A stretch of 64,000 nt of DNA from an uncultured Akkermansia sp. (GTDB lineage: Bacteria; Verrucomicrobiota; Verrucomicrobiia; Verrucomicrobiales; Akkermansiaceae): contig CANQBZ010000005.1 in assembly GCA_947589295.1 (NCBI GenBank), forward strand, positions 1,061 to 65,060, read 5' to 3'. The notes under the pieces were generated by a model. It was not told where the DNA came from. It saw only the letters and a list, made by a program, of their open reading frames with translations, and did no database searches. The position numbers and the translations under genes were made by a program. This document shows, piece after piece, positions 2,181 through 20,182 of the stretch. Numbering within the stretch: position 1 is the first letter of the stretch; every line of letters starts with the position of its first letter.

Positions 2181-2744
2181 ATGAAAATTATAGCTGGTAT
2201 GGCGGGGGGCTTGCCTTTGGTGGTCCCTAAGGGCGGGGTGCGTCCCACGCAGGAGCGCGTACGTGAGGCGCTTTTCAATATACTGACTCCTATACTGCCC
2301 GGGGCGCGGGTACTTGACTTGTTCTGTGGCACCGGGTCGGTTGGGCTTGAGGCGCTGAGTCGTGGGGCTGCCTACGCCTGTATGGTTGATGCTTCGGCCG
2401 CGGTTTGCCGGGTGGCACGGCAGAATATAGAGCGCTCTGGACTTGAACGTGCTGTAGTGGTACAGTCAGACTCTCTGGTATTCATTCGCCGAGCATGCGA
2501 GCGATTCCATCTCATTTTTGCTGATCCGCCGTACTGCAAATCCATCGGAGACAGAGATATGATTGCTGAGCTGCTTACTGGGCGCACGGCAGAGCTCTTG
2601 CTTGCAGGAGGTTACTTGATTGCCGAGGCACAAGTTGGCTATGGCGTGGGCGACCGACTCACCCGCAATTTCCCTGGTTGGCGTATTGCTGATGAGCGCA
2701 CTTATGGTAAAAATACTCTCCTTTTCTACCAAACCACAGCATGA
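2181..2744 (+). CDS. rsmD: 16S rRNA (guanine966-N2)-methyltransferase
   Basis: MKIIAG...RPTQERVREALFNIL...VLDLFCGTGSVGLEALSRGA...IFADPPY. The SAM-binding and DPPY motifs are typical of RsmD. Confidence 0.85.
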   Translation: MKIIAGMAGGLPLVVPKGGVRPTQERVREALFNILTPILPGARVLDLFCGTGSVGLEALSRGAAYACMVDASAAVCRVARQNIERSGLERAVVVQSDSLVFIRRACERFHLIFADPPYCKSIGDRDMIAELLTGRTAELLLAGGYLIAEAQVGYGVGDRLTRNFPGWRIADERTYGKNTLLFYQTTA

Positions 2745-4075
2745 TACGCTTCCTGATCTTCGCTCTCTACAATGTCGTCTATCCAGTTTTTCTGCTGATT
2801 TCTCTGCCGGGATTTTGTATCAAAATGCGGCGGCGAGGCGGGGCGTGGGGCGATGTATGGGAGCGCTTGGGTTTCTTCTCTCTCCCTGCACAGCACGAAC
2901 CAAAACGTGTCGTTTATGTACATGCTGTAAGTGTGGGAGAGGTCTTTATAGCGCTCAAGTGGATTCGAAATTGGCGTGCGAGGCACTCCACCTCTACTAT
3001 TCTGCTCGCCACTTCCACTGCCACGGGCCTTCAAGTAGCTCGTGCTGCGGGAGTGCCAAACACTCGCGTGATCTATGCTCCTGTGGATTTGGGATGGGTG
3101 GTGAGCAAGGTGCTGCGCCGTTTCACACCGCAAATTATGGTGCTCATTGAGGCTGAGCTCTGGCCAAATCATGCCCGACTTTGCCGTAAAATGAATATTC
3201 CTTTAGTGATGCTCAATGCGCGCCTCTCCCCACGCAGCGAGCGACGCTACGCTGCCATGCGCCCCATCACTCGTCTCCTTTTTTCCTACCTTTCTGCTCT
3301 TGCCGCTCAAAATCAAAATGATGCAGACCGCTTCATCGGAATTGGTGTGAATCATTCCATCATTTCAGTGACCGGCAGCATTAAGTTCGATGTGCTCAGT
3401 GCAACGCCCTCAACAACGCGCCCCGATTTTGCTGATATTCTGCAACATCTTTCGAACGGCAAGCCTGTTGTGCTGGCATGTTCCACTCACGCTGGCGAAG
3501 AGCTGCTTATCGCAAATGCTGCGCGGGCAATCGGAGCTTTCCCTCTTATTGTTCCACGCCACATGGAACGCCGCGCAGAGATCGTGAACGCTCTGACAGC
3601 GGCTGGTTTCACGCCAATACTGCGTAGTGAAGATTCTCCCTTGCCTACCGTGCCACCTAAGGATGTATGCTATATTGCAGATACTACGGGCGAGCTACGC
3701 GATTGGACTGCCTTGGCAGACATTGCAGTCATCGGTAAGAGTTTCCTAGCAGATGGCGGACAGAACCCAGTGGAAGCTATTGCAGCTCACGTGCCTGTTG
3801 TGGTGGGACCGCACATGAGCAACTTTGCCGATCTCATCAACTTACTGCTCAGCAAGGGCGCCATTCTAACTTGCCCGGCTCAGGGTATCGCCACCACTCT
3901 GAAACGCATCTTGGATGACCCACCAGCCGCCGCTCACCGCGCAGAATTAGCGTATGAAGCTTTGCAGATGCACTCCGGAGCCACAGCTCGCAGCTCGCAG
4001 CTTGTGGAGTCTCTCATACAGCCAGCATCTGTCACCCCTGCAAAAAAAAATACCGGCACCAACTTGAGGCGATGA
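2741..4075 (+). CDS. waaA: 3-deoxy-D-manno-octulosonic acid (Kdo) transferase
   Basis: N-terminal membrane anchor, then VYVHAVSVGEV...ATSTATG...EAELWPN...LMLNARLS, typical of WaaA/KdtA. Its ATG overlaps the rsmD stop (ATGA at 2741-2744). Confidence 0.85.
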   Translation: MIRFLIFALYNVVYPVFLLISLPGFCIKMRRRGGAWGDVWERLGFFSLPAQHEPKRVVYVHAVSVGEVFIALKWIRNWRARHSTSTILLATSTATGLQVARAAGVPNTRVIYAPVDLGWVVSKVLRRFTPQIMVLIEAELWPNHARLCRKMNIPLVMLNARLSPRSERRYAAMRPITRLLFSYLSALAAQNQNDADRFIGIGVNHSIISVTGSIKFDVLSATPSTTRPDFADILQHLSNGKPVVLACSTHAGEELLIANAARAIGAFPLIVPRHMERRAEIVNALTAAGFTPILRSEDSPLPTVPPKDVCYIADTTGELRDWTALADIAVIGKSFLADGGQNPVEAIAAHVPVVVGPHMSNFADLINLLLSKGAILTCPAQGIATTLKRILDDPPAAAHRAELAYEALQMHSGATARSSQLVESLIQPASVTPAKKNTGTNLRR

Positions 4076-18707: not shown

Positions 18708-18785
18708 TTGAATAATTATTCCCTTTGTGGTACTAGCAAGAAAACCGAACCGCAATTTCGGTTTTTTGCATTGCGCGCAATGCAA
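18708..18785 (+). promoter_or_regulatory. structured upstream region of the H1-like gene: possible promoter, AT-rich palindrome, terminator-like hairpin, 20-bp perfect palindrome
   Basis: TTGAAT (18708-13), a 17-nt spacer, then TACTAG (18731-36). GAATAATTATTC is a perfect palindrome at 18710-18721. The hairpin AAAACCGAA/TTCGGTTTT (18741-18765) is followed by Ts. TTGCATTGCGCGCAATGCAA is a perfect palindrome at 18766-18785, 22 nt before the ATG. Confidence 0.35.
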
Positions 18786-18806
18786 CACGAAAAAAACAAC
18801 ACGACC

Positions 18807-19211
18807 ATGGCGACAAAAAAAACAACAAAACCGACTGCAAAGTCGGCTCCCGCTAAGAAGACCGCAGCACCAAAAAAGGCTGCCCCTAAAAAGGTAGCGT
18901 CCAAGAAGCCTGCTGCTCCTAAGAAGGCCGCCCCAAAGAAGACCGCAGCTCCCAAGAAGCCTGCTGCTCCTAAGAAGGCCGCCCCAAAGAAGACTGCAGC
19001 TCCCAAGAAGCCTGCTGCTCCTAAGAAGGCCGCCCCAAAGAAGACCGCAGCTCCCAAGAAGCCTGCTGCTCCCAAGAAGGCCGCCCCAAAGAAGACCGCA
19101 GCTCCCAAGAAAGCTGCCCCCAAAAAGGTGGTGCCCAAGAAGCCTGTAAAGAAGGCCGCTGCTTCCAAGAAGGTTGCCTCCAAGAAAGCAGCCCCGGTAA
19201 AAAAAAAGTAA
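18807..19211 (+). CDS. histone H1-like Lys/Ala/Pro-rich DNA-binding protein
   Basis: From ATG 18807: MATKKTTKPTAKSAPAKKTAAPKKAAPKK..., with four 17-aa KKPAAPKKAAPKKTAAP repeats. It ends AAPVKKK* inside an A9 run. The track start at 18636 is far upstream and crosses the regulatory hairpins. Confidence 0.75.
   Translation: MATKKTTKPTAKSAPAKKTAAPKKAAPKKVASKKPAAPKKAAPKKTAAPKKPAAPKKAAPKKTAAPKKPAAPKKAAPKKTAAPKKPAAPKKAAPKKTAAPKKAAPKKVVPKKPVKKAAASKKVASKKAAPVKKK
18903..19106 (+). repeat. 4 x 51-nt near-perfect tandem repeat (coding, KKPAAPKKAAPKKTAAP)
   Basis: Units at 18903-18953, 18954-19004, 19005-19055 and 19056-19106. They differ only at synonymous third positions (acc/act, cct/ccc). Confidence 0.9.
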
Positions 19212-19510
19212 ATCATAAGATTGTTCCCCTGAGAGGAGCTGACCAGGTCTCTGGGGCCAAGTCCGCTCCTCTCAAGGGGAGCAAAAAGGGTGGGGTTGCG
19301 CCTGCCAAAAGAATTGCTCTGAAGGCAAAATCAGCCTCCTCTCTCAAAAAAACGCCAGCCAAAGTTGCATCGGGCAGGCGCGTTCCAGAAAAAAACAAGG
19401 CCTTAGTAGCCGTCAAGACATCTGCGAAGGGAGGAACGACTACGTCTGTAAAGACATCTGAAAAGGAAGCTCCTGCGTGGAAAACACAGGTAAAAAACGC
19501 CTCGAGGTCA
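19199..19510 (+). other. 104-codon coding-like tract with no stop and no start codon, in frame with the downstream DksA-like ORF and reachable from the H1-like ORF by a 1-nt shift in the A9 run
   Basis: Hand translation gives KKKVNHKIVPLRGADQVSGAKSAPLKGSKKGGVAPAKRIALKAKSASSLKKTPAKVASGRRVPEKNKALVAVKTSAKGGTTTSVKTSEKEAPAWKTQVKNASRS, then M at 19511. There is no ATG/GTG/TTG in this frame, and the other two + frames contain stops. Confidence 0.55.
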
Positions 19511-20182
19511 ATGACCCACGCACAGAATATCCAGGAGAAAAAGCCTTCGACGCCAATTATCCCAGCAAAATCGCCGATTCAACAGTCAGCGCCTGAGGGG
19601 GAGGTGCCGACAACGCCTGCCGAGCATGCCGGGAATATCGCTATTAACTTGTCAAAGGAAAGTGAACGTCGTAAAAAGGTGAAGGCTACCATCGCTAAGC
19701 TGCGCTCAGAGCCAGATTGGAAGCAGTTTTTAGCGGGGCAAAAAGAATTGCTCATACAAATGCGCGATAATCTGCTGCCGAACATGCAGAATGTAACGCG
19801 GGACCACTTGCGCAGCGGCGAATCCAACGTCTCCTCCTCGTCTGGACAGCATATAGGGGATGCGGGAAGCGAAGCCGAACAGCGTGATATCACAATTTTG
19901 CGTCTCGATAAAGACCGCGAGCAGCTTTTTGAAATTGAGGCTGCATTAGACCGCATTGCCAAGGGGACGTACGGTGTATGCGAACTCTCTCTAGAGCCCA
20001 TCCCACGTAAGCGCCTCCAAGCACGCCCCTTCTGTCGTTTCACAGTGCAATGCCAAGAAGAATATGAAAAACGATACGGCACCTATTCTGCCTTACGCTC
20101 TAAAAATTCGGGAGATGTGGGTTTCTCAGGTCTTCAAAAAGTCATCGAGTCAACAATTTTACTTGACGAAGACGAGGAATAG
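19511..20182 (+). CDS. DksA/TraR-family protein with a degenerate C4 zinc finger (minimum extent; the true N-terminus is probably upstream)
   Basis: GDAGSEAEQRDITILRLDKDREQLFEIEAALDRIAKGTYGVCELSLEPIPRKRLQARPFCRFTVQCQ. This has the coiled-coil plus C-terminal finger layout of DksA, but the finger reads CxxS...(T)xxC. Confidence 0.7.
   Translation: MTHAQNIQEKKPSTPIIPAKSPIQQSAPEGEVPTTPAEHAGNIAINLSKESERRKKVKATIAKLRSEPDWKQFLAGQKELLIQMRDNLLPNMQNVTRDHLRSGESNVSSSSGQHIGDAGSEAEQRDITILRLDKDREQLFEIEAALDRIAKGTYGVCELSLEPIPRKRLQARPFCRFTVQCQEEYEKRYGTYSALRSKNSGDVGFSGLQKVIESTILLDEDEE

Follow-up and report, generated by a model that had tools for sequence, protein, structure and literature searches.

The stretch of DNA analysed here, referred to as the window in the following, comprises 64,000 nucleotides (nt) of contig CANQBZ010000005.1 from an uncultured Akkermansia sp., and all positions count from its first letter. 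It carries two adjacent open reading frames (ORFs), the first for a Lys/Ala/Pro-rich protein resembling histone H1 and the second for a protein of the DksA/TraR type, which meet at an uninterrupted run of nine adenines (A9). The features of this locus are collected in Table 1.

Table 1. Positions of the features around the junction of the H1-like ORF and the DksA ORF in the window.
Feature	Position	Strand	Description
H1-like ORF	18807..19211	+	134 amino acids (aa), Lys/Ala/Pro-rich, MATKKTTKPTAK...APVKKK and stop, 0 frame; ATG at 18807
Tandem array inside the tail	18901..19111	+	51-nt (17-aa) unit, 4.1 copies, 98% identical
A9 run, putative slippage site	19199..19207	+	begins with the wobble base of the GTA codon before it
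A_AAA_AAG heptamer	19202..19208	+	0 frame (X_XXY_YYZ, classical -1 frameshift motif of bacteria), read from the sequence
Basic linker	19208..19648	+	-1 frame, VNHKIVPLRGADQ...NIAIN; predicted disordered; without canonical start before ATG 19511
0-frame stop TAA	19209..19211	+	directly 3' of the slippery site
Third-frame TAA	19216..19218	+	read from the sequence
Conserved RNA hairpin (predicted)	19227..19277	+	core 19233-19243 paired with 19261-19271; stem in the window reaches approximately 19221-19283
ATG chosen by gene callers	19511..19513	+	223-aa DksA, ends at 20182; species-specific
DksA/TraR-type domain	19649..20182	+	LSKESERRKK...DEDEE, with stop; PF01258, PDB alignments

The product of the upstream ORF, called the tail below, starts with MATKKTTKPTAKSAPAKK, and the ORF ends with the codons GCC CCG GTA AAA AAA AAG TAA. 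The frame of the DksA ORF lies at -1 relative to it and is open from approximately 19022 through the A9 run. Between 19199 and the ATG at 19511 this frame comprises 104 codons with no stop and none of the starts ATG, GTG or TTG, and the other two frames are interrupted there by 7 and 3 stops. A slip of one base at the A9 run gives a single protein of 458 aa with the junction ...AAPVKKKVNHK.... The initial annotation of this DNA had described the end of the first ORF, the A9 run, the start-less frame with stops in both other frames and the slip product, and all of these were recovered when the sequence was re-read and translated. A transcript with eight or eleven adenines (A8 or A11) would be ended by the third-frame TAA within a few codons. 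Since neither a sigma-70-like promoter nor a terminator-like site was found between the H1-like stop and DksA on the plus strand, the locus is consistent with a single transcript over both ORFs.

Relatives of the locus in Akkermansia

Loci of 80 species-representative Akkermansia were fetched and classed as single-ORF or split. Tail and DksA part lie in one ORF of 200-540 aa in 58 distinct coding sequences (CDSs), including that of A. muciniphila, and 25 loci from about 20 species show the split arrangement of the window, to which L025 and the metagenomic locus L088 can be added. The question raised by the annotation, whether orthologous loci carry one ORF or two, is thus answered with both. 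The database relatives of the DksA part are Akkermansia proteins of 182-549 aa, some of them named 'TraR/DksA family transcriptional regulator [Akkermansia sp.]'. Many start with MATKKTTP..AKKPA.. or MATPKK..., and their K/A/P-rich tail is continuous with the DksA domain. The start pattern MAT[KT]KKT... is common to the tail of the window and the single-ORF relatives.

The synteny is equal in both classes and comprises an M42 peptidase, the tail/DksA gene, rpmG, rpsR and folE2. Compared to the split form, the single-ORF TraR/DksA proteins (e.g. A. muciniphila, 212 aa) are encoded at the same locus and show the same MAT/MAA..K-rich N-terminus and a domain with 57-84% identity, but they have no A-run of at least nine and no frame break. 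Since the relatives carry a single ORF in identical synteny, the two ORFs of the window are taken to be the two parts of a gene that is undivided in most of the genus, the tail ORF being judged homologous to the N-terminal tail of the single-ORF proteins. Likewise, since most Akkermansia carry tail and DksA as a single ORF, the split state is regarded as derived and the fusion as the normal product of the family. This supports the earlier proposal that the A9 run joins both ORFs into one protein of tail, linker and DksA domain. The accompanying view that such an architecture would be unusual did not hold, as a DksA with an H1-like tail is the norm across Akkermansia and has an analogue in DdbA of Streptomyces coelicolor (PMC3643593). 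The Lys/Ala-rich tail stands directly N-terminal to the DksA-like domain in the 58 single-ORF relatives, in the window only via the proposed slip.

The tail comprises 117-194 aa among the split-gene species and from about 30 to more than 350 residues among the single-ORF proteins. In a neighbour-joining tree of the DksA domain, calculated without bootstrap values, the split loci group into two distinct clades interspersed among lineages with a single ORF, and the single-ORF locus L031 nests within the clade of the window. The tree implies at least two gains of the split state, or repeated reversions, as far as can be judged from the domain sequences. One single-ORF protein of 549 aa (P0011, from a European Nucleotide Archive contig of 2,689 nt) continues from the DksA domain into a C-terminal DUF805 match (PF05656), which reflects either a real fusion or, the contig being short, the loss of a stop codon.

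Architecture of the junction in the split loci

The DksA part lies in the -1 frame at every one of the 25 split loci, and all of them, together with L025 and L088, carry A9 or A10 at the junction. None of the 58 single-ORF CDSs has an A-run of nine or more, the longest being A8. Five variants of the junction were found: GTA/ATA AAA AAA AAG TAA/TAG/TGA (the ATA form in L013), GTA AAA AAA AAG AGC/GGC TGA, GAG AAA AAA AAA AGC TGA, GCA AAA AAA AAA TAA and ACA AAA AAA AAC TAA. In all five the first base of the run occupies the wobble position of the codon before it, and in every split species the 0-frame stop starts 0-4 nt 3' of the run. The heptamer is A_AAA_AAG in the clade of the window and A_AAA_AAA or A_AAA_AAC in the others. 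Early third-frame stops comparable to the one at 19216-19218 were also read in the other variants.

An additional in-frame A8 (CAG AAA AAA AAC GCG), one base shorter than the run length at the junction, occurs in the linkers of L007 (412-419), L010 (1092-1099) and L012 (2890-2897). Another A8 run lies at the beginning of the tail in the window (18815-18822, codons 3-6, ACA AAA AAA ACA); it is not conserved, L002 having AAG AAA at this place.

Evolution of the linker

Only 0.45% of mononucleotide shuffles of the 104-codon stretch were free of stops. Comparable stop-free and start-less stretches follow the run in L009 (111 codons), L013 (153) and L014 (131), with shuffle P values of 0.001-0.0055 for each of the four species including the window. 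Because their linkers are only 20-42% identical at the protein level, these tests are nearly independent. The ratio of nonsynonymous to synonymous substitution rates (dN/dS) in the linker was 0.33-0.62, and the lengths of all pairwise indels were multiples of three (3, 6, 12, 15, 39 and 63 nt). The DksA domain of the eight species in the subclade of the window showed a dN of 0.01-0.05 with a saturated dS of 1-3 and a protein identity of 93-99%.

The start codons chosen by gene callers follow no common position. ATG 19511 is not conserved, the corresponding codon encoding Thr in L008 and Ile in L009, and in L002, L007, L008, L010 and L012 a TTG or GTG located 36 nt after the run is called instead. 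At the position aligned to this start, L013 and L014 have AAG, the window has CAG and L009 has GCG. The TTG called in L002 and L007 was rejected as a true start, as it is replaced by a non-start codon in these four species, lies inside the stem of the hairpin described below and appears derived on the tree. Since a start-less frame with a coding signature directly abuts a slippery run, the simplest explanation for translation of the linker is that it is entered from the upstream ORF, to judge from these patterns of substitution.

Nucleotide constraint and a predicted hairpin downstream of the run

In the 32 codons that directly follow the run, dS was only 0.15-0.4. Since dS is low here and saturated in the domain, the comparison indicates that something besides the protein is conserved just after the run. 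Part of this segment is accounted for by the run and the following GTAAATCMTAAG, which supplies the 0-frame stop and the third-frame TAA.

A second element is an RNA hairpin predicted in the eight species of the subclade. It comprises 18 pairs, with 97% of the cells paired and compensatory changes in 5 pairs. In 500 shuffles, neither the covariation score nor the percentage paired nor the number of cells changed on both sides was matched once, and the observed number of pairs changed on both sides was reached in 6; controls slid along the sequence were 33-56% paired. No Rfam match was obtained between 18400 and 20500, even at E <=1. The 5' arm of the hairpin holds AGGAG and in some species also a TTG or GTG, and the structure may occlude internal initiation.

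Interpretation of the split locus

Altogether, we consider it probable (roughly 0.7) that the locus represents an ancestral gene for an H1-like tail and a DksA-type factor, putatively one of the RNA-polymerase secondary channel, with a fixed and conserved -1 recoding site, from which a free H1-like protein and the fusion would both be produced. Among the three explanations listed in the initial annotation, namely a homopolymer sequencing error, a phase-variable switch and programmed recoding, the last one agrees best with the conservation of the junction, the start-less open frames and the evolution of the linker. According to this mechanism, standard decoding of an A9 message would end at the TAA at 19209 and release the free 134-aa H1-like protein, while a fraction of expression events would shift by one base at the A-run and yield the 458-aa protein of tail, linker and DksA. 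This shift could arise on two routes with an identical product: RNA polymerase may add one A, resulting in A10 in the mRNA, or the ribosome may slip by -1 on A_AAA_AAG beside the stop. How much free tail is made relative to the fusion would then depend on the slip rate. By analogy with DdbA from Streptomyces, DksA activity would be anchored to the DNA of the nucleoid through the fusion, and the split species would in addition release a free H1-like protein.

Several observations weigh against this interpretation. In many split species possible starts are found soon after the run: a GTG overlaps the TGA stop in the third junction group (L016, L017, L021), and an ATG or GTG is located 38-53 nt 3' of the run in four of the five species of clade II, so that two independent cistrons are possible in species with a start near the run. 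In the window, ATG 19511 is preceded by GAGG 3 nt upstream and could be the source of a tail-less DksA. None of the contigs from the RNA-type runs X19, X21 and X22 crosses the A-run. The hairpin is confined to one subclade of 8 species and absent from the other three junction groups, and it begins 18-24 nt after the heptamer (24 nt for the core, 12 nt for the extension specific to the window). A 3' structure stimulating frameshifting is usually spaced 5-9 nt from its heptamer, and an upstream Shine-Dalgarno-like stimulator is expected approximately 10-14 nt 5' of the site. For the ribosomal route, neither a correctly spaced 3' structure at 5-9 nt nor a Shine-Dalgarno-like or GGAGG-like element in the upstream AAGAAAGCAGCCCCGGT was found.

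Due to its spacing and its restriction to a single subclade, the hairpin was rejected as a classical frameshift stimulator. Since the other split groups lack it, the distribution among species suggests that it cannot be required for recoding in general.

In run X19, labelled 'RNA?', one contig (19301-19564) spans the linker and crosses ATG 19511 and a second one covers 18722-18910. Its assembly covers neither the repeats nor the A-run. If X19 is really RNA, the linker is transcribed.

The alternative that survives best, though we regard it as unlikely, is a completed gene fission. According to this explanation, a deletion of one base in the ancestral A-run divided the gene into two cistrons that are expressed independently, so that the H1-like protein is made separately from a tail-less DksA, which starts at ATG 19511 in the window and at TTG, GTG or ATG elsewhere; the A-run would be no more than the C-terminal KKK of the first gene, and the intervening stretch a leader. 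It agrees with the annotation of two genes by gene callers, with the candidate starts of many species and the GAGG ahead of ATG 19511 mentioned above, and with a conserved DksA domain that is complete in the short form. Independent cistrons are more plausible in those clades in which a start codon lies near the run. However, the positions of the starts vary, and four species are start-less over 104-153 open codons. A leader would not account for a linker with a dN/dS below 1 and in-frame indels only. Moreover, fission leaves unexplained why at least nine adenines, including a free wobble base, persist in about 20 species although dS is saturated elsewhere, and why the 0-frame stop always abuts the run. 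These points argue for the conserved recoding site.

Much less probable is phase variation, in which slipped-strand mispairing would toggle between a split A9 and a fused A10 allele. Homopolymer tracts are the classical substrate of this process (PMC3711429) and the tract is located exactly at the frame junction, but a transcription factor would be an atypical gene class. The A-run was checked in 22 sequencing runs at the level of assembled contigs, at which rare variants within samples are invisible. Short-read contigs break at the tandem array in the tail. Contigs from three independent runs of different studies span 19082-19700 without differences or gaps and carry A9, as do two further assemblies of the same species (L005 and L006). 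No in-frame allele was found among the three protein clusters of the subclade of the window (40 members, about 120 contigs, all proteins <=315 aa). A junction-spanning query against 5.8 billion sequences returned no protein across the junction, and an exact-pattern scan of Joint Genome Institute (JGI) metagenomes for the junction with A7-A11 gave no match. A protein-guided scan of the same metagenomes revealed 9 loci, one of which was a further split locus (L088, with A9). Regarding tract length, only the out-of-frame state was seen, in all five assemblies and three runs of the window species and in 25 of 25 split loci. Since under phase variation some of the consensus assemblies should be in frame and none of them is, the switch considered in the initial annotation is disfavoured.

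A recent inactivation, with the downstream open frame as the remnant of a decaying pseudogene, is slightly less probable still. Frameshifts in homopolymers are a common inactivating lesion, but the split state is common to about 20 species with saturated dS (1-3), the DksA domain is held at the identity and low dN given above within the subclade, and the frame of the linker is kept. A sequencing or assembly error, with A10 and a single ORF as the true sequence, can be excluded, for although homopolymers are error-prone on some platforms, the same A9 was found in the three runs and two other assemblies, and the same out-of-frame arrangement in about 20 other species from several projects.

Possible slippage by RNA polymerase or by the ribosome

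Assuming that the site is recoded, RNA-polymerase slippage is slightly favoured over ribosomal frameshifting, and both may contribute. This preference is based on the length of the run, which always comprises at least nine adenines and thereby matches the length of the RNA-DNA hybrid, including a wobble base that is not needed for the heptamer. It is further based on the efficient slippage of 9-base A/T runs in vivo and the matching arrangement in Thermus dnaX. A9 is slippery for the bacterial RNA polymerase in vivo (PMC4666387, PMC5009743), and in Thermus dnaX productive slippage takes place on a nine-base homopolymer run with stops in both other frames (PMC5009743). The junction shows the corresponding features, namely a homopolymer of at least nine (threshold of 9 or more from PMC5009743 and PMC3711429) and stops close by in both non-productive frames.

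For the ribosomal route, A_AAA_AAG, A_AAA_AAA and A_AAA_AAC are recognised frameshift heptamers (PMC3711429), and the stop is located directly after the heptamer. The presence of a heptamer is a weak test, since any A9 contains one in any phase. An upstream hairpin that would be convincing was not found, the upstream folds being no different from shuffles in most species. It has been argued that a dedicated tRNA-Lys for AAG leads to poor shifting on A_AAA_AAG (PMC5009743). The codon choice in the tail of the window, with 39 AAG compared to 10 AAA, may hint at such a dedicated tRNA. The window was found to contain no tRNA genes, and none of the loci fetched carried a tRNA-Lys. A feedback of DksA on the slippage at A9 is not proposed, given that E. 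coli DksA had no effect on it (PMC4666387).

A farther-reaching and rather doubtful version would be that the poly-A site is a regulated switch which evolved at least twice in Akkermansia and the slip frequency of which follows the growth state. In this case, nucleoside triphosphate pools and elongation speed (for RNA polymerase) or the supply of Lys-tRNA (for the ribosome) would tune the slip frequency, and the cell would shift between a free H1-like nucleoid protein and a nucleoid-tethered DksA. Recoding would thereby be tied directly to the machinery of the stringent response, and in the subclade the hairpin would block internal initiation, so that DksA would be made only as the fusion.

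Protein domains

The DksA part matched PF01258 with 31.5-32.3 bits, which passes the family cut-off of 24.9, while the scores for the NCBIfam equivalogs of DksA stayed below their cut-offs (57.3 of 105 for NF033459 and 50.1 of 115.5). The best PDB alignment of the domain was obtained with 6PTG (E=5.6e-13, 115 residues), and 4IJJ, 2KQ9 and 1TJL were also aligned. Compared to E. coli DksA (1TJL), a C4 zinc finger is lacking, since only the first and the fourth Cys are present (C..S ... T..C). The respective region (19970-20060, GVCELS...FCRFTVQC) shows a pattern like those of 6PTG and the zinc-independent 4IJJ. This suggests a metal-free variant of the domain.

In the AlphaFold model, the mean of the confidence score pLDDT was 55. 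Residues 1-144, corresponding to the linker, are without secondary structure, and helices at 145-170, 174-205 and 222-255 (pLDDT of about 65-80) lie where the coiled coil is expected. Models of H1-like proteins matched the tail below their cut-offs (16.3 compared to 40 bits for HC2 (Hc2, PF07382) and 25.2 compared to 80 for NF038053). The resemblance of the tail to H1 thus appears to be one of composition only.

Comparison with known systems

Among characterised systems, the fixed run of 9-10 A/T in a cellular gene is shared with dnaX of Thermus thermophilus, with mxiE and spa of Shigella and with the poly(A) rescue in Buchnera and Blochmannia. As in the Thermus dnaX group, stops in the alternative frames are nearby and one DNA would give two proteins with a common N-terminus. 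The longer, functional product of mxiE and of the endosymbiont genes depends on slippage (PMC5009743, PMC3711429). In contrast to Thermus dnaX, in which the full-length product results from unslipped expression, the longer product would here be the slipped one. The gene also differs from this group in encoding a DksA-type transcription factor with an H1-like tail.

The dnaX gene of E. coli and the insertion sequences IS3, IS911 and IS1 contain the same heptamers in the 0 frame with a 0-frame stop after the site, and in the insertion sequences two ORFs are fused by the frameshift (PMC3711429, PMC5009743). Compared to these, the Akkermansia junction lacks a properly spaced 3' structure and a visible upstream Shine-Dalgarno-like stimulator, and its run is always longer than the heptamer requires.

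With respect to the protein, DdbA of S. coelicolor (SCO2075) shows the closest characterised architecture, combining an H1-like and a DksA-like part (PMC3643593). DdbA is encoded by an ordinary uninterrupted ORF and possesses a C4 zinc finger as well as both tip aspartates, whereas the Akkermansia domain has two of the four Cys. Since NF033459 stays below its cut-off and the zinc finger differs, DdbA is treated as an analogue and not as a demonstrated orthologue. The H1-like tail was called streptomycete-specific in the description of DdbA (PMC3643593), while it is the rule in Akkermansia.

Poly-A slippage leading to two products is well known; what is new is the gene affected, the clade and a seemingly double origin. 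Among bacterial chromosomal genes, conserved recoding sites are rare, the main examples being prfB, dnaX, copA and certain secretion and IS genes. In the literature, no study was found that connects recoding with Akkermansia or DksA, and DksA is not mentioned in the GeneTack survey (PMC3711429) or the 2016 recoding review (PMC5009743). If the proposed recoding is true, a global transcription factor joins the list of recoded bacterial genes, and current annotations miss the real product by showing a 'hypothetical' K-rich ORF and a DksA with an arbitrary start. About 20 species of this prominent gut genus carry the split gene, apparently in two separate clades, and the unsplit sister species provide a natural control. 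The locus would also be a clean system for studying how the proportion of a nucleoid protein to an RNA-polymerase factor tethered to the nucleoid is adjusted in the cell.

Other features of the window

The 5' leader of the H1-like ORF contains a terminator-like hairpin at 18742-18767 (AAACCGAA...TTTCGGTTT followed by a T-run) and a perfect 16-nt palindrome at 18768-18783 (GCATTGCGCGCAATGC). Both recur slightly altered in L002 (AAACCGAATCATTATTTCGGTTT, GCATTGCGCACAATGC) and may represent an attenuator or operator.

Two further long A-runs were noted in the window. Another A9 lies at 4042-4050, eight codons before the stop of a 444-aa ORF (2741-4075, ...CCT GCA AAA AAA AAT ACC...), where a slip would alter the last few residues only. 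An A10 run at 1277-1286 is located in an apparent intergenic leader approximately 25 nt 5' of the ATG at 1311, the product of which starts signal-peptide-like with MKALSLILAVSAI....

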